The notes beneath the pieces were generated by a model that made no database searches, was not told where the DNA came from, and saw only the letters and a program-made list of their open reading frames with translations. Positions 21,955-31,379 of a DNA stretch of 32,000 bases are shown piece by piece. The position numbers and the translations under genes were made by a program. Source of the DNA: Fibrobacter succinogenes subsp. succinogenes S85. Its GTDB lineage: Bacteria; Fibrobacterota; Fibrobacteria; Fibrobacterales; Fibrobacteraceae. Each line of letters begins with the position of its first letter. Within the stretch, counting starts at the first letter, position 1. The DNA is taken from contig NC_017448.1 of NCBI RefSeq assembly GCF_000146505.1, positions 450,001 through 482,000 on the forward strand. The letters run 5' to 3'.

Positions 21955-22683
21955 CTAACGCCCCACCGATAGTCGGTCAATCAAAAACGAGGGCATCCCC
22001 TGCTTTTTCATGCGGTTCTGCGTCTCACGAATGTCGTATTCCACTCGAATGAGCCGCACGCACTTGGTCTCGGTATCGAGCAGACACCAGCAGGCTCTCG
22101 GGTCGCGGTCGCGGGGTTGACCCACACTGCCGACGTTCACCAGCAAACGTTCGGTATTCGCAATCACGTACTCGTACTCGTCCAGAATCTTCGGGATCGC
22201 CAAGGGGCGGCTAGCAATGATGACCGGGCTATGCGTATGCCCCACAAAGCAGTAGCGCTCCGAGAAATGGTCAAAAGCGTTCAGCGCATCCTCGAGATCG
22301 GTCACATAGACCCAATCTGCCGGAGACAAGGGCGACGCATGCACAAAGCAGATATCGTTTTCTTCCTGGATGTACGGGAGCGAGCGGATATACGTCACGG
22401 ACTCCTTGGAAAGGTTCTTCTGGGTCCATTCAATCGCCTGCTTCGCGTACGGGTTGAACCCGGCGCTGGATTCGTACCGGACCGCCACGCTGTCGTGGTT
22501 CCCGATCAGGCACACATCCATGTTCTCTTTAACCAAATTGACGCACTCATCGGTATCGACGCCATATCCCACAATATCACCAAGGCATACTCTCCGTTCC
22601 ACGCCATTTTCGCGCATGGACTGGAGCACAGCCTCAAATGCGGTGGCATTGGAATGGATATCTGAACAAATACCGTAAAGCAT
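21955..22683 (-). CDS. Metallophosphoesterase (calcineurin-like)
   Basis: Motifs SDIHSN (DxH), GDIVGYG (GD), GNHD and GHTH. Its stop abuts the rlmH start with 0 nt between them. Confidence 0.85.
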   Translation of the reverse strand: MLYGICSDIHSNATAFEAVLQSMRENGVERRVCLGDIVGYGVDTDECVNLVKENMDVCLIGNHDSVAVRYESSAGFNPYAKQAIEWTQKNLSKESVTYIRSLPYIQEENDICFVHASPLSPADWVYVTDLEDALNAFDHFSERYCFVGHTHSPVIIASRPLAIPKILDEYEYVIANTERLLVNVGSVGQPRDRDPRACWCLLDTETKCVRLIRVEYDIRETQNRMKKQGMPSFLIDRLSVGR

Positions 22684-25067: not shown

Positions 25068-25104
25068 CTATATTTGTTTGCATAAACTAAAGAAGGAAAA
25101 AACA

Positions 25105-26424
25105 ATGGAAACAGAATCCAAATTACAGCCCAAAGTGCAACCCAAATTTCAGCTTCCCAAAAAGAATTACACAAAAGCAATCATTGTCGCGGTCATCGTT
25201 GTTATCGCTCTTATTTTGCTCAAGTGCAATATCGGTTACAACAGTGCAACGCAGCTTCTCGTGAAACAGTCTCCGTTCGGAACACTCTCCTGCATCGACC
25301 ACGCCGGTTTTTACTTCAAGGGATTTGCAAGCATCTACTCTTACGACAGAACCAAGGACTTCTACTTCAACTCCTCTACCGATAAGGTAAAGGGCGAAGG
25401 CTGGGAAGGCGGCGACGATGACGAAGACGATATTTCCGTTACCTTGTCCCGAAACGCAAACGCCGAAATCAGCGGCTACCTCAAATACCAGCTCCCGACG
25501 GACTGCGAAGACCTCGTGAAAATCCATCGCGAACAGCGCTCCGACAAAAAACTCAAGCATGACCTTGTCCGTAACTCCGTGCTCTCGGCTGTTAGAAAGA
25601 CCGCACCGCTTTTCACTGCTGAAGAAGCCAAGGTGACAAAGATTGCCGAATTCAGAAGAATCGCCGAAGACCAGCTCACCGAAGGCGAATACCTCACCAC
25701 AATCGAAGTGCTCACCGAAAAGGCCGGCGAAGACGATTACGATTCTGAAGGCAAAATCATCAAGAAAGCCGAAACGCAAGAATACAAGGTCACAAAGCTG
25801 AAACTCGATAAGAACGGCAACCGCATCTTGACAAAGCCCTCGGCACTCCGTCTCTACGGCATCAGAGTGGTGCAATTTGAAATCCAAAACGTTCGCCTCG
25901 ATCAGAAAGCTCAACAGCAGCTCGACATCGTGAAGGACCGCGAAATGAAGCGCGTGTCTAACGCAACGGCTGCAGAAACGGCAAAGCAGGCCGCCATCAC
26001 CGCCGAAGCCGAAGGTAAGGCTCGCATCGCCCAGGCCAAGGCCGACCAGGAAGTGGAAAAAATCAAGGCTGTGACGCAGGCTGAAAAGGAACGCGACGTG
26101 GCCGTTCTCCAAGCTCAGAAGGAACAGGAAGTCGCTCGCCTCGAAGCTCTAAGAGCTCTCGAAGTCGCTAAGAAAATCAAGGCCGAAAAAGAAGCTGAAG
26201 CTGCAGCAAACAGAGCACTCGTCAGCGCCGGTTTGACTCCGCAAGAACGCGCCGAATGGGATTACAAGACCAAGGTCGGTGTTGCTGAGGCTCTCGCCAA
26301 GTCCGCACATCCGCTCGTCCCGGAAATCATGATGACCGGCGACTCCAAGGGTGGCGCAAGCACTGCCATGGACGCAGTAGGCTTGAACATGCTCATGGGA
26401 CTTACCGAAAAACTGTCGAAGTAA
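25105..26424 (+). CDS. Membrane-anchored SPFH/flotillin-like protein with an Ala/Glu/Lys-rich coiled coil
   Basis: The ORF-track start at 25078 is TTG. ATG 25105 (METESKL) follows AAGGAA. One TM helix (AIIVAVIVVIALILL) and a long coiled coil (AEAEGKARIAQAKADQEVEKIKAVTQAEKERDVAVLQAQKEQEVARLEA...), as in flotillin/YqiK-type proteins. The core-domain assignment is tentative. Confidence 0.55.
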   Translation: METESKLQPKVQPKFQLPKKNYTKAIIVAVIVVIALILLKCNIGYNSATQLLVKQSPFGTLSCIDHAGFYFKGFASIYSYDRTKDFYFNSSTDKVKGEGWEGGDDDEDDISVTLSRNANAEISGYLKYQLPTDCEDLVKIHREQRSDKKLKHDLVRNSVLSAVRKTAPLFTAEEAKVTKIAEFRRIAEDQLTEGEYLTTIEVLTEKAGEDDYDSEGKIIKKAETQEYKVTKLKLDKNGNRILTKPSALRLYGIRVVQFEIQNVRLDQKAQQQLDIVKDREMKRVSNATAAETAKQAAITAEAEGKARIAQAKADQEVEKIKAVTQAEKERDVAVLQAQKEQEVARLEALRALEVAKKIKAEKEAEAAANRALVSAGLTPQERAEWDYKTKVGVAEALAKSAHPLVPEIMMTGDSKGGASTAMDAVGLNMLMGLTEKLSK

Positions 26425-26555: not shown

Positions 26556-27209
26556 CTATTTCACATACAGAATCGTCGGGTTATCCTTATGGATGTCAAA
26601 ACGCGGCAAATTGATGTTATTTTCCGAGCAAAATGATTGCCAAAGTTCATCCATTCTTGATGTATTGAACGGCTTCGCAATCAAGTGAAACCCGTTTTTC
26701 GTCTGGATTTCTACAATATCATTTGCCGACTGAAAAGGTTCACACTTTTCAATCATTTCACGAACCGCCTGCTTATATGGAACAAATTCCGCATCTACAT
26801 CGACAATCCAGGTTTTTGATTTTCCCGCAGCATTTGCACGACCAGCAGCTCGTGCCACCAAATGAAGCGGCGGAGCAAACGTTTCACCAGAGCAGATTTC
26901 TTCGGTGATGTGCTTAAAAATGATCATCGAAATATCCTTGAACGTCCGCTTGTTCAAACGGATGTATGCCCGCACATTGAACACTTCGCAAATCGTCTTG
27001 ATTTCCTTTTCGACATCGTCAAAATGTGCTAACGACGAAATAAAGTAGTCCTTGATAGAGCGACTATGCATATTGCCGTGATACGCCGGATCTGGAACGC
27101 CTCCAATTTTTGGATCGTCACTTTGCCTACGGAGCAGTTGAACGTAATAACAATCGCCAGGACTTTCGAACTTGAGCATCGAACGGATAATTTTGAAGTT
27201 ATCAACCAT
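26556..27209 (-). CDS. Hypothetical protein (217 aa), translationally coupled to the HD gene
   Basis: ATG 27207-27209 overlaps the HD gene stop (TGA 27202-27204) by 8 nt. No family recognised. Acidic/His positions appear in the order WIVDVD (D137/D139), NGFHLI (H175), FDIHKD (D205). Confidence 0.7.
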   Translation of the reverse strand: MVDNFKIIRSMLKFESPGDCYYVQLLRRQSDDPKIGGVPDPAYHGNMHSRSIKDYFISSLAHFDDVEKEIKTICEVFNVRAYIRLNKRTFKDISMIIFKHITEEICSGETFAPPLHLVARAAGRANAAGKSKTWIVDVDAEFVPYKQAVREMIEKCEPFQSANDIVEIQTKNGFHLIAKPFNTSRMDELWQSFCSENNINLPRFDIHKDNPTILYVK

Positions 27210-27951
27210 TTGAACCTCCTATAGTTTTGATGGCGGCACGAATTAAACTTTCTTTGGAGAGGACTCCCCCATTGATTTGCATTTTATGGCAAAAAACGAG
27301 AGCATTTTCCACGCGAATATCATCCCACTTTTGCGAAGCAAAATCATCCGCTTCGACAATGGCGACAGGCATTTCATTTTCAAGACACTCTGCAACAATA
27401 GGGCGTTTCAAGATTTCTTCAAAGTCATCATGAGGCTTGCCCTCAGCGTCCAAAGTCGCTTTGCAATCGGCACAAGCAAGGTGTCGCAGCCGCCCGAACA
27501 ACGGATGCTTTACCAACTGCCAAATATCATACTTAGAACGCATCACCTTTAAATCCAAAGCTTTCATGTGATTGCAAATAAGCCAAAGAACCTGTTCACG
27601 GATTTTTCGGTCAAAATTCATCTTCACAAGCCATTCCAAAGCAATGCGAGCACCTTCAATTTCGTGCCCTTGCATATTCTTACCGTTGTTGCGTTGTAAA
27701 GCATCTTTCTTCCCTACGTCATGAAGCAAAGCAACAAGCACATCCATCCAATCATGTTCTTCAGCAACAACATTCTGTATCACAAGTTTCGTATGTTCCC
27801 AGACATCGCCTTCACTATGGAAATTCTTGTGTTCGCAACCAACCATATAGCGATCGATAAATTCAAAAAATTCATCCTTATGCAATTGGATTTCCGCAAT
27901 GGGATTGGACGAGGAGAGGATATTTTCTATTTGGCGAAAATTATTCTGCAT
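27202..27951 (-). CDS. HD-domain phosphohydrolase resembling the HD domain of class-II CCA-adding enzymes
   Basis: FHSEGDVWEHT...ALLHDVGK...GHEIEGA (nt 27709-27819) is the H...HD...H pattern, with the HxEGDVWxHT context typical of Cca-type HD domains. The ORF-track start at 27987 is TTG, so ATG 27951 (MQNNF) is used. No nucleotidyltransferase head domain is present. Confidence 0.8.
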   Translation of the reverse strand: MQNNFRQIENILSSSNPIAEIQLHKDEFFEFIDRYMVGCEHKNFHSEGDVWEHTKLVIQNVVAEEHDWMDVLVALLHDVGKKDALQRNNGKNMQGHEIEGARIALEWLVKMNFDRKIREQVLWLICNHMKALDLKVMRSKYDIWQLVKHPLFGRLRHLACADCKATLDAEGKPHDDFEEILKRPIVAECLENEMPVAIVEADDFASQKWDDIRVENALVFCHKMQINGGVLSKESLIRAAIKTIGGSNG

Positions 27952-28019
27952 AACAATCCATTCACAATCTAAAACAAACTGGTACAACGTTTATTTTCAA
28001 AAATTGAGTAATCAAGAAA

Positions 28020-29303
28020 TCACCATTCATCATATTCATTTGGAACATCCCAATGCGAGATATCTCCTGTGAATTTTGAATTTTTAAACATGTCTATATT
28101 ATATTCTAAGCTTGCAATATCCCATGATGACAAATCTCCGTCAAAACAAGAGCCACTGAACATTTCAACCATGTTGGTAACATTTGCAACATTCCACCGA
28201 GAAATATCTCCGTTGAATTTGGAATTGCTAAACATTCCGCTCATATCCGTCACATGAGAAACATTCCATGATGACAAATCTCCATCAAAGCAGGATCCGC
28301 TAAACATTTCTGCCATATTAGTGACGTTTCCGACATTCCACTGAGAAATGTCTCCAGTGAATTTTGAATCCTGGAACATTTTGCTCATGTCCGTCACATG
28401 AGAAACATCCCATGATGACAAATTTCCATCAAAGTAGGAACCGCAGAACATTTCGAACATATTTGTAACATTGGCAACATTCCACTGAGAAATGTCTCCG
28501 TCGAATTTAGATTTATAAAACATCCGCCTCATGTTTGTAACGCGAGAAACATTCCAATTAGAAATATCGCCATTAAAACAAGATCCACAAAACATGGCAT
28601 ACATGTTTTGAACATTGGATACATCCCAATTGGAGATTGATGTATTAAAGGTAGTGCCAGAAAACATACCACTCATATCCGTCACATGAGAAACATCCCA
28701 ATTGGAGATATCACCATTAAAAGGAGAACATGAAAACATCTCACTCATTTTTTTCACATTTGAGACATTCCATCGCGATAAATCATCGTTGAAAGCAGAG
28801 TCTTCAAACATATGACTCATATCTTCCACATTTGAAACATTCCAACAAGAAATGTCGCCTATGAATTGAGATTTGAAAAACATATAGCCCATGTCTTTCA
28901 CATTTGAGACATTCCAGTGAGAAATATCACCATTAAAGTCACATTTCCAAAACATTCCCCTCATATTCGTGACGTTAGATATATCCCAGTTGGAGATATT
29001 CCCGTTAAATGACGAATAAAGAAACATATCTTTCATATCGGTCACATGAGATACGTCCCAGTTAGAAATATCGGCATTAAAATCAGCTTCCCAAAACATA
29101 CCCCTCATGTTCGTCACTTTTGAAACATCCCACTGAGATATATCGCCTTTGAACGAAAGGTTCATAAAAAGATAACTCATATCCGTCACATTAGACACAT
29201 CAATAAAATTAAGGCTGCATTTATCACCTTCTTGATTGATGGTTTGGATGATAATATTTTGCAGTTCATGTTTATTGCGGACAATGATTTTAGCAGCCAT
29301 CAT
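28020..29303 (-). CDS. DUF285/BspA-like leucine-rich-repeat protein, no signal peptide
   Basis: 427 aa with AGGAG before ATGATG. It has 16 tandem 24-aa repeats of consensus (N/S)W(D/N)VS(N/H)VT(N/D)MxxMFxxSxF(N/D)GD(I/L)S. The N-terminus (MMAAKIIVRNKHELQNIIIQ) is hydrophilic. Confidence 0.85.
   Translation of the reverse strand: MMAAKIIVRNKHELQNIIIQTINQEGDKCSLNFIDVSNVTDMSYLFMNLSFKGDISQWDVSKVTNMRGMFWEADFNADISNWDVSHVTDMKDMFLYSSFNGNISNWDISNVTNMRGMFWKCDFNGDISHWNVSNVKDMGYMFFKSQFIGDISCWNVSNVEDMSHMFEDSAFNDDLSRWNVSNVKKMSEMFSCSPFNGDISNWDVSHVTDMSGMFSGTTFNTSISNWDVSNVQNMYAMFCGSCFNGDISNWNVSRVTNMRRMFYKSKFDGDISQWNVANVTNMFEMFCGSYFDGNLSSWDVSHVTDMSKMFQDSKFTGDISQWNVGNVTNMAEMFSGSCFDGDLSSWNVSHVTDMSGMFSNSKFNGDISRWNVANVTNMVEMFSGSCFDGDLSSWDIASLEYNIDMFKNSKFTGDISHWDVPNEYDEW
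28023..29213 (-). repeat. Intragenic tandem repeat, 72-nt unit x16, with a younger 144-nt super-repeat at the 3' end
   Basis: The string CCGTCACATG recurs at 28247, 28391 and 28679, offsets of 144 and 288 nt. Repeats 12-13 and 14-15 are about 83% identical at the protein level (40 of 48 residues). Confidence 0.9.
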
Positions 29304-29408: not shown

Positions 29409-30725
29409 ATGATTGAACGCATACAAGATTTATCAGAGGTTATTGCGGGGCAAGGAAGTTACCCCCGTAAGCCATTTTTATCTTGCCAAAACATTTCGTA
29501 CGACGAACTCGTCGCTATTTTGGATGATGCCCCAGAATCGCATTCCGCTAATTTTATTTTTCAGCCTAAAAATTTGACCTTCGCCTTTCCGTACAATCGA
29601 GGCAAACAATGGCTCCGTGAAATCAAAGATATTTTACTATTGAATTCCGCAGAAGTCGGGCAAAGTCTTTTTCCTAAACTTTACCGTTTTGTCAAAGGCT
29701 CCGAAGTTAAAATCCGAGGAAAAATTTTTATCAAGACAAAATGCGCAAACCGTTTTTCTCTCGAGGAATTGACAGAAATATCACGCAAGATTTTAAGCAA
29801 CTATATCATTCTCCCACAAAAATTCTGTTCGCTAGATATTAGTTGTAAAAGAAATGAAGATATAACCGTCGAAATCGGCAGAATACAGATTCCAAATTAT
29901 TCGGGGATTGGTTTCTACATTCATTTTAGTCTTTCTTGTCAATTACACCGAGTTCAAACAGCTAAACCTTTAGAATATTTTTCAGAAATGCACGAAATCC
30001 GCATAGGAGGCTTTGGTCACAATACTTGCGGTAGAAACGGCATTTTCTTTGTACTTGTACAACTGTTTGAATACGGGAACACGCTTACAGAGATTCCAAA
30101 AGACATTGAAAATTCATTACTCGGATCTGAAAATCCTTGCGAAAACTATTGGAGTAAATTTCACAAGCAATATATTGCTACAGATTTTTTACCTGCATTT
30201 ATAAAACAAAAATCAAAGATTTTTTCAGCAAGACAATCAAACGAAACAAGTACTTCTGGAGATTTCATTTACCATGACAAATTCGGCTATGGTCAAATTC
30301 TAAAGAAATACGAAGAAAAAGGAGATAAAAGAATTGATGTTCTTTTCAGCGACACTATTACTAGAACATTAATCTTGAAATATGCTAACGAACATCTCAA
30401 ATTCACAACCAATCAATACCATAATCAAGAATTCAATGAAGATGTTCACATTTCATCAGAAAATCCAATTTATGTGAATTGCACATTCAACAACGGCGTT
30501 TTTATTGAAGGAAATGTATACCCTATTTTTATATCTTGCTCATTTTATGGTTATGACAGCGCAGGCGTGCAACTTTTAAATGGTTCTCAAGGATTTTTTT
30601 ACAATTGCAGGTTCAACCATACATTCCCCTATATTTCGCCAAATATGAAAAATTGTTCTTTCGAACCTAACGCAACGAAAGATGAATTTAGAATCGGTGG
30701 ATGCAATATAGACACCAACAAATAA
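29409..30725 (+). CDS. Hypothetical multidomain protein: unknown N-terminal domain, UvrD/PcrA-type Tudor-like motif, beta-helix-like C-terminus
   Basis: 438 aa with AAAAGGAG before the ATG; very AT-rich. Residues 284-332 (nt 30258-30404) read GDFIYHDKFGYGQILKKYEEKGDKRIDVLFSDTITRTLILKYANEHLKF. This matches the GDxVxHxxFGxGxV...VxF...KxL...A.L pattern of the UvrD/PcrA/Rep C-terminal domain. The C-terminus has four (N/S)Cx F repeats (NCTF, SCSF, NCRF, NCSF; nt 30477-30662). Confidence 0.75.
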   Translation: MIERIQDLSEVIAGQGSYPRKPFLSCQNISYDELVAILDDAPESHSANFIFQPKNLTFAFPYNRGKQWLREIKDILLLNSAEVGQSLFPKLYRFVKGSEVKIRGKIFIKTKCANRFSLEELTEISRKILSNYIILPQKFCSLDISCKRNEDITVEIGRIQIPNYSGIGFYIHFSLSCQLHRVQTAKPLEYFSEMHEIRIGGFGHNTCGRNGIFFVLVQLFEYGNTLTEIPKDIENSLLGSENPCENYWSKFHKQYIATDFLPAFIKQKSKIFSARQSNETSTSGDFIYHDKFGYGQILKKYEEKGDKRIDVLFSDTITRTLILKYANEHLKFTTNQYHNQEFNEDVHISSENPIYVNCTFNNGVFIEGNVYPIFISCSFYGYDSAGVQLLNGSQGFFYNCRFNHTFPYISPNMKNCSFEPNATKDEFRIGGCNIDTNK

Positions 30726-30838: not shown

Positions 30839-31120
30839 ATGGCACAGGCAACAGTTTCTGCACGAATCGACAGCAAAGACAAAGAACGTTTTGACGAATT
30901 CTGCAATAACGTTGGTTTGTCCGCATCCGCAGCCATCAACATGTTCATCAAGAGCGTCATCAATGAACATCGCATTCCCTTTGAAGTCCGCGAACCCATA
31001 GCCCGTTACAACGCAAAAGCAAATGACATCGAGGCCCTCAAAAAAGGCATCGAACAGCTCAATGCCGGGAAAGGTATTGTGAAAACACTAGAAGAACTAG
31101 AGGCAATGGAAAATGGCTAA
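30839..31120 (+). CDS. RelB/DinJ-family type II antitoxin (ribbon-helix-helix)
   Basis: MAQATVSARIDSKDKERFDEFCNNVGLSASAAINMFIKSVINEHRIPFEV aligns with the DinJ N-terminal RHH. AAAGGAG precedes the ATG, and the gene overlaps the toxin gene by 8 nt. Confidence 0.85.
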   Translation: MAQATVSARIDSKDKERFDEFCNNVGLSASAAINMFIKSVINEHRIPFEVREPIARYNAKANDIEALKKGIEQLNAGKGIVKTLEELEAMENG

Positions 31121-31379
31121 AATCGCATTTTCCGAACAAGCGTGGCAAGAATATCTCTACTGGCAACTACAAGATAAGAAAACACTCAAAAGAGTCAACC
31201 AACTGCTTAAAGACATCGAGCGAAACCATTTCGAAGGCTTAGGCAAGCCTGAAGCATTGAAAGGAAACCTCAGCGGATTTTGGAGTCGACGAATTGACGA
31301 TGGCAATCGGCTAATCTACAGAATTAATGGTGAATTTATCGACATTCTTTCTTGCAAAGGTCACTACGAAAACGTTTAG
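31113..31379 (+). CDS. yoeB: YoeB/Txe-family type II toxin (ribosome-dependent mRNA interferase)
   Basis: IAFSEQAWQEYLYWQLQDKKTLKRVNQLLKDIERNHFEGLGKPEALKGNLSGFWSRRIDDGNRLIYR...CKGHYE is near-collinear with E. coli YoeB. The Glu, Arg and C-terminal His-Tyr catalytic positions are present. Confidence 0.92.
   Translation: MAKIAFSEQAWQEYLYWQLQDKKTLKRVNQLLKDIERNHFEGLGKPEALKGNLSGFWSRRIDDGNRLIYRINGEFIDILSCKGHYENV

Follow-up and report, generated by a model that had tools for sequence, protein, structure and literature searches.

In Fibrobacter succinogenes subsp. succinogenes S85, two overlapping genes at the edge of an AT-rich stretch look like a phage-derived gene pair for the repair of RNA ends, most likely tRNA ends, that Fibrobacter has kept at a variable chromosomal site. 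We give this reading about an even chance. The window we analysed is the 32,000-nt stretch of contig NC_017448.1 from position 450,001 to 482,000, and positions are those of the window. One gene encodes an HD-domain protein (Fisuc_0028, here the HD protein); the other encodes a 217-aa protein (FSU_0420), for which X217 is our working name. An HD phosphohydrolase next to a nucleotidyltransferase resembling the archaeo-eukaryotic primases (AEPs) would make up the phosphoesterase-plus-nucleotidyltransferase set of RNA healing systems, with both activities predicted. What would be new is the use, in an RNA-repair module, of a minimal AEP-like enzyme that stands alone and is paired here with a headless homologue of CCA-adding enzymes.

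Both genes, with all the features described within them, are on the reverse strand. The X217 gene (26556-27209) is an open reading frame (ORF) of 217 aa with an ATG start. The HD gene (27202-27951) encodes 249 aa from the ATG at 27951, the start used by other gene callers and found in most homologues, or 261 aa if translation begins at the TTG at 27987. An earlier analysis, made from the letters alone and called here the sequence-only reading, had placed ORFs of 217 and 261 aa at 26556-27209 and 27202-27987, where we find them, and the 8-nt overlap that it saw between them (27202-27209) reads ATGGTTGA. These are genes and not chance ORFs. A Shine-Dalgarno sequence, AGGAGG (27215-27220), lies inside the 3' end of the HD gene, 5 nt upstream of the X217 ATG. 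Because this position within the upstream coding sequence is the usual arrangement for translational coupling, the junction suggests that X217 is coupled to the HD gene. The public records name the two products 'hypothetical protein FSU_0420' and 'conserved domain / HD domain-containing protein'.

The HD protein and class-II CCA-adding enzymes

The HD protein matches the Pfam HD family (E=2.8e-6, 28 bits against a cutoff of 22) and contains the strings FHSEGDVWEHT, LLHDVGK and GH, from which the sequence-only reading had described a Cca-type HD domain standing alone, without a nucleotidyltransferase head. Our searches agree on every point. NCBIfam models of CCA enzymes match at their C-terminal parts only (TIGR02692 at 249-345 of 466 positions, PRK10885 at 210-351 of 409), scoring 36 and 20 bits against full-length cutoffs of 439 and 451. 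The protein has no Pfam match to the Pol-beta head (PF01743/PolyA_pol), and only CCA-model positions from 210 upwards are matched. There is also no space for a head upstream of the gene, because the neighbouring DUF285 gene ends 32-68 nt away. Without a Pol-beta head, the HD protein is therefore no CCA-adding enzyme. Its family is narrow and centred on Fibrobacter, its most distant detectable relatives are complete CCA enzymes carrying PF01743, PF12627, PF01966 and PF13735, and the alignment with CCA enzymes reaches the C-terminal tail.

The metal site is conserved. In an alignment of 22 homologues, full CCA enzymes included, no sequence departs from H45, E47, G48, D49 and H53 (27793-27819), the H77-D78 pair (27718-27723) or, further downstream, H96 and H128, and D162 is nearly invariant. 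The class-II CCA-adding enzymes, among them E. coli Cca, the A. aeolicus A-adding enzyme and the T. maritima CCA-adding enzyme, share with the HD protein both the H...HD...H...H...D site and the HxEGDVxxHT string. The AlphaFold2 (AF2) model has a pLDDT of 94.2, and its best Foldseek matches are 3WFP, 3WFO, 3WFR and 3WFS, all of the Aquifex A-adding enzyme (TMq 0.57-0.66), followed by 5HC9, the Thermotoga CCA-adding enzyme. All of the top 18 matches are A-adding or CCA-adding enzymes, at a TMq of 0.66 or less, and the neck, body and tail of 3WFP/3WFR and 5HC9 superpose on the whole of the modelled HD protein.

Sequence and model together make the HD protein a class-II tRNA nucleotidyltransferase without its head ('headless'), made up of neck, body and tail with an apparently functional HD site. 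It differs from the class-II enzymes in being a separate protein of 249 aa that lacks PF01743 and sits beside an unrelated nucleotidyltransferase candidate. By analogy, it is a predicted 2',3'-cyclic phosphodiesterase/phosphatase: Yakunin et al. (2004) are said to have found 2',3'-cyclic phosphodiesterase, 2'-nucleotidase and phosphatase activities in the HD domain of E. coli Cca. The protein may also retain the tRNA-binding body and tail domains, which would make it a natural experiment on the re-use of tRNA-binding modules. The C-terminus also matched archaeosine TGT weakly (E=0.011); the fold search gave no such match, and we put this one down to chance.

X217 and the primase-polymerases

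X217 matches PHROG 14949, a family of 'unknown function', from end to end (E=1.8e-30). Neither the single protein nor a 66-sequence profile has a match by sequence in Pfam, NCBIfam, PADLOC or PDB, and neither X217 nor the 66 family members match HAD, TOPRIM or any other Pfam family even at E<=1. No characterised family of unrelated function claims the protein, which the sequence-only reading had been unable to assign. The family is large: a word index gave 490 homologues, and at 50% identity there are at least 1,788 clusters (E<=1e-3). Most members are phage-borne, in Cellulophaga phage phi17:2, Tenacibaculum phage pT24, all Lak megaphages and a crAss-like phage, and they also occur on hundreds of IMG/VR contigs, mostly of 50-430 kb. 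A family that extends from Lak megaphages, crAss-like phages and marine Bacteroidota phages to rumen Fibrobacter is called 'hypothetical' in every database that we consulted. Among 138 representatives, N4, Y21, R28, R80, G123, W134, D137, D139, G173, H175 and F181 are near-invariant.

Several of these residues fall where an AEP would have its active site. The AEP motifs are hhhDhD/E, which supplies metal ligands, sxH, which binds the nucleotide, and hD/E (PMC5862659; PMC4538821). The candidate for motif I in X217 is W134-I-V-D137-V-D139 (26793-26810), at the C-terminal end of strand 134-138, which fits hhhDhD and aligns to IDLD of phage primase-polymerases (PrimPols); D137 is present in 137 of the 138 representatives and D139 in all of them. 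The motif II candidate, T170-K-N-G173-F-H175 (26685-26702), lies on a hairpin strand and aligns to the PrimPol SPSGxGLH, with G173, H175 and a Thr or Ser at 170 each found in 137 of 138. The P/T preceding it resembles the SPS loop of the NrS-1 PrimPol, which binds the gamma-phosphate of the NTP (PMC8718748). Motif III could be D205-I-H-K-D209-N-P-T (26574-26597), just before the last strand. An acid occupies position 205 in 113 representatives, position 209 in 93 and at least one of the two in 130, and the profile alignment is unreliable past motif II. The coordinates given earlier for D137-V-D139 (26793-26801), H175 (26685-26687) and D205 (26595-26597) are correct.

We built a profile of NrS-1-type PrimPols from 42 sequences, drawn from annotated phage primases and IMG/VR loci, and aligned the X217 family to it with hhalign. 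The match has a Prob of 77%, P=1.9e-5 and a score of 41, with motifs I and II aligned. Over the range of NrS-1-type PrimPol profiles, Prob is 58-77% and P is 1e-4 to 1.9e-5, for a match of only about 45-49 columns. Reversed-sequence controls gave P of 0.12-0.16. As decoys we used 41 unrelated family alignments from X217 loci, with RNA-ligase, SPFH and HD families confirmed among them. These gave a mean score of 13.8 (standard deviation (SD) 2.5, maximum 19.2), which puts the PrimPol match about 11 SD above them. For a second AEP family, that of the cyanophage S-2L PrimPol, we gathered only two sequences, and the comparison had no power: they failed to match even the NrS-1-type PrimPol profile.

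The likeness to the NrS-1-type PrimPol, an AEP of the Prim-Pol clade (6A9W, 6K9A), extends beyond single residues. Both proteins have hhhDxD and then P-[ST]-x-x-G-x-H-h-h-h, and motifs I and II are 36 residues apart in X217 against 35 in NrS-1 (FIDLD...SPSGDGLH). A loop containing Ser or Thr before motif II is conserved, and a zinc finger is absent from both. The differences are as clear. X217 has about 200 aa and neither the helix-bundle domain nor the helicase of NrS-1 PrimPol; its N-terminal half (YYxQxLRR, RAYIRLN) and DIHKDNPT have no detectable counterpart there; and its context is RNA repair, where that of NrS-1 PrimPol is a replication module. Foldseek gave no link between the two.

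The AF2 model of X217 (pLDDT 92.5) consists of an N-terminal beta/alpha unit and a beta-alpha-beta-beta-alpha-beta unit. In this C-terminal half the DxD stands at the end of the first strand and the His on the third, and the protein ends right after the last strand. Against PDB, Foldseek matched ferredoxin-like fragments only (E>0.1). The weak matches in BFVD are viral proteins of 640-940 aa, two of them named, as VirE and as an AAA-domain protein. Reading WIVDVD as a HAD (DxDxT) or TOPRIM (E...DxD) motif fails for want of an invariant Glu, of a motif II-IV pattern and of a Pfam match, and the 41 neighbour-derived decoy clusters, which we also weighed against these two readings, scored at background.

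X217 is probably an AEP-like nucleotidyltransferase. The sequence-only reading had offered a likeness to AEPs as speculation; the profile match over motifs I and II and the invariant D137, D139, G173 and H175 give it substance, while motif III and the fold are still unproven. The helix-bundle domain of ORF904 and NrS-1 is needed for priming and not for extension (PMC8718748). As X217 has no helix-bundle, zinc-finger or helicase module, we infer that it would be an end-extending or terminal transferase and not a primase. More specifically, it is a predicted RNA 3'-end nucleotidyltransferase. At about 200 aa it would be the smallest known AEP catalytic core, useful for work on mechanism and for engineering.

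Other members of the family are longer. About two thirds of the closest homologues (P0012, P0064 and P0066, for example; alignment columns ~175-350) have 300-330 aa, with insertions between motifs I and II and, between motif II and the DIHKDNPT motif, an insert of about 100 aa that has no Pfam match. Members with apparent N- or C-terminal extensions show no known domain in them. The NrS-1-type PrimPols are themselves poorly covered: their catalytic domain (477 phage records; L054-L059, L051 14895-15524) has no Pfam-A match at E<0.01, and only the helix-bundle domain is modelled in Pfam (PF22763).

RNA-repair neighbourhoods and a possible function

We collected 131 X217 loci, which reduced to 64 non-redundant ones. 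No neighbour is universal among the 64; the recurrent ones are coherent. The most frequent Pfam families among 146 flanking proteins are RNA_ligase (8), Metallophos (6) and the PHA02142 ligase OB domain (5), followed by HAD_PNKP, AAA_33, SF1 helicase and Band_7 (4 each) and PolyA_pol and HD (3 each), and a second batch of 55 flanking proteins added Rnl1, Thg1 and NADAR. With locally built hidden Markov models, we found an RNA ligase, Rnl1, RtcB, Pnkp or CCA nucleotidyltransferase within 5 kb of X217 in 29 of the 64 loci, and an RNA-repair gene in 36 when Metallophos is included. Ligases adjoin X217 homologues in 16+7+1 of 64. The association is tightest next to the gene: RNA-repair genes occur at 2.36 per 10 kb within 1 kb of X217 against 0.61 at 2.5-5 kb, or 30 observed where the distal rate predicts about 8.

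Individual loci show how close the association can be. One (L159) has RtcB, a small ORF, a full CCA enzyme with head, RNA-binding and HD parts, and then an X217 homologue that overlaps the CCA gene by 4 nt. In another (L167), where no RtcB was found, a full CCA enzyme ends 4 nt before the X217 homologue. The order in both, CCA enzyme then X217, is the HD-then-X217 order of Fibrobacter. Elsewhere an RNA ligase gene overlaps X217 (L209), or a CCA head and a T4-type Pnkp precede it (L173), and in phi17:2 X217 is followed by a CCA head, then by a PARP-like protein and then by a DNA ligase. In a further lineage (L226/227), X217 shares an operon with RlaP (PF10127; L226 852-2636 and 4115-4780, both on the reverse strand). 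The L226 locus also has a DUF7788 protein nearby and a 399-aa protein. DUF7788 occurs beside Rnl1 and a DUF2828 protein in L014 as well, and the L226 locus is another RNA-repair-like cluster. Two large phage contigs carry a tmRNA gene about 320 nt downstream of X217, with a score that passes the Rfam gathering cutoff, and tRNA genes come after it (L161 5902-6307; L199 5909-6332). A tmRNA also has a CCA end and could be a substrate of X217.

The proposal that the cassette belongs to RNA repair is supported by phage neighbourhoods rich in RNA ligases, RtcB, Pnkp and CCA enzymes. Exactly the genes of the known healing-and-sealing systems (T4 Pnkp with Rnl1/Rnl2, RtcB, Pnkp-Hen1) adjoin X217 homologues, and the HD protein could, by analogy, have the 3'-end healing role of the HD and calcineurin-like domains of jumbo-phage systems (PMC7824862). 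The 'syntax' of phage RNA repair comprises ligases, end-healing kinases and phosphatases (HD and calcineurin-like ones included) and the nucleotide-restoring nucleotidyltransferases RlaP, CCA enzyme and Thg1 (PMC7824862). These three are the only nucleotide-restoring enzymes in that 2021 survey of jumbo phages, which has no AEP and comes from the group of Burroughs and Aravind. In 2016 (NAR 44:8525) these authors, as summarised in PMC5862659 and PMC8211822, predicted that divergent AEP domains act on RNA in RNA-repair systems. In the summary of PMC5862659 these domains are parts of multidomain proteins found 'primarily in kinetoplastids'. X217 is a stand-alone phage family, and it is by these later descriptions that we set it apart from them.

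Phage and bacterial RNA repair is a front line of the conflict over tRNA-cleaving defences and toxins. Among enzymes that might restore the nucleotides removed by such toxins, we know of no candidate nucleotidyltransferase with biochemical data other than RlaP (2025 preprint). According to a published proposal (PMC7824862; PMC12776372), RlaP puts back what 'smart' ribotoxins such as RloC have taken from the RNA. Like X217, it is a small nucleotidyltransferase candidate that stands alone, and it is by linkage to RNA ligases and Pnkp, in bacteria as in phages, that both are defined. Their folds are unrelated, Pol-beta for RlaP and AEP-like for X217, and neither X217 nor its 66 family members match PF10127. 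Since they occur together in one operon, they are probably complementary rather than interchangeable. If X217 is an RNA-end polymerase, AEPs would be a fourth enzyme class in RNA repair, and a recurrent unannotated gene of gut and rumen phage genomes would be explained.

A possible course of repair can be sketched; gene structure, conservation, homology and neighbourhood are observed, and the chemistry, the substrate and any complex of the two proteins are predictions. The HD protein would convert the 2',3'-cyclic-phosphate or 3'-phosphate RNA ends left by ribotoxins to 3'-OH, as the analogy with the E. coli Cca HD domain suggests, and might also hold the tRNA. X217, with DxD for metals and sxH for the NTP, would then extend the healed 3'-OH and restore lost nucleotides, extending ends rather than priming. 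Completion would fall to the host CCA enzyme in Fibrobacter and to ligases, Pnkp or RtcB in phages. The Fibrobacter cassette and the annotated part of the window differ from the healing-and-sealing systems in having no identified ligase or 5'-kinase, and no RNA ligase is among the annotated genes at ~16.5-32 kb, which suggests terminal 3'-end repair and not the rejoining of anticodon loops.

A bolder version, which we hold only tentatively and think rather doubtful, is that X217 founds an unrecognised class of RNA-repair polymerase, in which a minimal primase-polymerase core and a headless CCA body and tail work as a hybrid enzyme. X217 would be the catalytic 'head' of a putative complex, and the headless CCA homologue would supply the tRNA-binding body and tail and the end-healing HD site, so that an AEP would have taken the place of the non-homologous Pol-beta head. 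Such an enzyme would re-synthesise end nucleotides of tRNA or tmRNA that 'smart' ribotoxins had removed. One possible route would be to fill in, on a template, the resected 3' strand of an acceptor stem, which would mirror the repair of 5' ends by Thg1-type enzymes.

The pair in Fibrobacter and its surroundings

The stand-alone HD protein with X217 occurs in the main Fibrobacter lineage at 80-99% identity. A second, diverged Fibrobacter copy of the pair has 66% identity in the HD protein and 72% in X217 (L021, L022), and in a third lineage (L226/227) an HD gene of 61% identity faces the operon of X217 and RlaP. The order is HD then X217 in all Fibrobacter copies. Distant stand-alone HD homologues (P0293 and P0294) have no adjoining X217, and P0294 lies beside an AAA_33 kinase. 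The sequence-only reading would have been refuted by absence of the pair elsewhere. The pair does recur, within Fibrobacter-like lineages, to which the exact pair is confined; outside them it is X217 that recurs, with CCA enzymes and further genes of RNA repair beside it.

Within F. succinogenes the pair is kept between rpiA and a conserved 181-aa gene, while on its flanks the DUF285 gene, a 438-aa gene, RelBE, an SPFH gene and a hydrolase come and go. Among Fibrobacter copies the ratio of non-synonymous to synonymous substitution (dN/dS) is 0.03-0.09 for X217 and 0.17-0.18 for the HD gene, at dS up to ~1.3. Both genes are under purifying selection, and the cassette is therefore maintained and not decaying. 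X217 appears to be the more indispensable partner. In one Fibrobacter metagenome-assembled genome (MAG) the HD protein is truncated to about 100 aa beside an intact X217 (L018, 5703-6008), and in the second paralogous copy it has ~184-191 aa and lacks the C-terminal tail segment (L021 907-1458; L022 4326-4877). One locus is a mosaic (L016): its X217 is 98.6% identical to that of the window (dS 0.16) and its adjacent HD gene only 85% (dS 0.40). This uneven divergence within one MAG suggests recombination, with a breakpoint at or close to the junction of the two genes.

Not all of the evidence points towards RNA repair by a polymerase. It is unlikely, though deserving of attention, that X217 belongs to RNA-repair modules as something other than a polymerase, such as an RNA-binding or scaffold subunit or another metal-dependent phosphoesterase or transferase whose DxD...H motifs are mere mimics of those of AEPs. 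In its favour, nothing but ferredoxin-like fragments came out of the fold search against PDB, motif III is not fixed, the invariant R28, R80 and N4 have no AEP counterpart, and in L226/227 RlaP may already fill the nucleotidyltransferase role. Against this stand the PrimPol match far above the decoys, which include the neighbouring RNA-ligase cluster, the coincidence of the invariant residues with exactly the AEP positions for metal (DxD) and NTP (sxH and the preceding Ser/Thr), and the lack of any HAD, TOPRIM or other Pfam match even at E<=1. A role in DNA, with X217 as a primase or polymerase of phage replication or DNA repair, the Fibrobacter copy a leftover and the HD protein a hydrolase of dNTPs or other nucleotides, seems to us distinctly unlikely. 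The sole detectable relatives of X217 are indeed replicative phage PrimPols, and DNA genes do recur near it (PolA in 9 of 64 loci, an adjacent SF1 helicase in 4, ThyX, and DNA ligase in phi17:2 and L010). X217 is nevertheless a catalytic core only, without the helix-bundle domain needed for priming; within 1 kb of it RNA-repair genes are about three times denser than DNA-metabolism genes; its directly overlapping partners are CCA enzymes, RNA ligases and Pnkp; and purifying selection on the chromosomal copies of Fibrobacter is strong, with nothing like a replication module near them.

The sequence-only reading had also offered a nucleic-acid-targeting defence module. In such a module, infection would set both proteins to attack or modify nucleic acids. 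The setting invites the idea: an AT-rich variable island beside RelB/YoeB, with cargo that varies by strain as at defence hotspots, and weak, generic Cas3-HD-type PADLOC matches of the HD protein (E 0.0035-0.04). We found no support for it and consider an anti-phage or toxin module improbable, since X217 matches no model in PADLOC-DB v2, its family is found overwhelmingly in phage genomes (those of Lak, crAss-like, Cellulophaga and Tenacibaculum phages) and on viral contigs, the genes around it in phages are those of repair and not of effectors, and the HD protein is specifically CCA-enzyme-like. We think it very improbable indeed that a degraded prophage left the pair behind as an inert remnant with no present function in Fibrobacter. 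The missing CCA-enzyme head and the truncated and shortened HD proteins of the L018 MAG and the second paralogue could be read as decay, but the dN/dS values speak for selection on both genes, all catalytic-site residues are intact, the pair stays at the same site while its flanks change, and the identical protein was found in 82 sample blocks.

The island itself is as the sequence-only reading had described it, AT-rich and next to a toxin-antitoxin module: GC is 35-43% at ~26.5-31.4 kb against ~50% in the flanks, and RelB/YoeB are present among the annotated genes at 30839-31379. The HD-X217 pair lies at the edge of this stretch. ARAGORN and Rfam found no tRNA-like or structured RNA near the SPFH and X217 genes of the window. 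A Metallophos phosphoesterase (21955-22683, reverse strand), of a family enriched beside X217 in phages, lies 3.9 kb from X217 amid the housekeeping genes rlmH, folA and FKBP, and is probably unrelated to it.

The SPFH/Band-7 protein (25078-26424, forward strand; Band_7 E=3e-8) is encoded convergently with X217, by a gene of host-like GC. Burroughs and Aravind reportedly proposed in 2016 that SPFH/Band-7 proteins are scaffolds or cofactors of RNA repair. In 7 of 64 loci the X217 homologue has an SPFH gene no more than 1.3 kb away; L017 lacks the gene. The window protein is 63% and 77% identical to SPFH proteins beside X217 on Bacilli and Coprovivens MAG contigs (L023 4313-5566; L025 7477-8667), where the identity of X217 is lower, at 60% and 46%. 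SPFH may travel with X217 as a scaffold or accessory of the module, a membership that is uncertain.

The rest of the AT-rich stretch, apart from RelB/YoeB, holds a 427-aa protein made almost entirely of DUF285/PARCEL repeats (28020-29303, reverse strand; E=1e-158) and, divergent from it, a 438-aa protein (29409-30725, forward strand) with weak beta-helix and PcrA/UvrD-Tudor-like matches. These two genes are AT-rich, strain-variable cargo: in L016 and L017 neither of them lies between the HD gene and the 181-aa gene.

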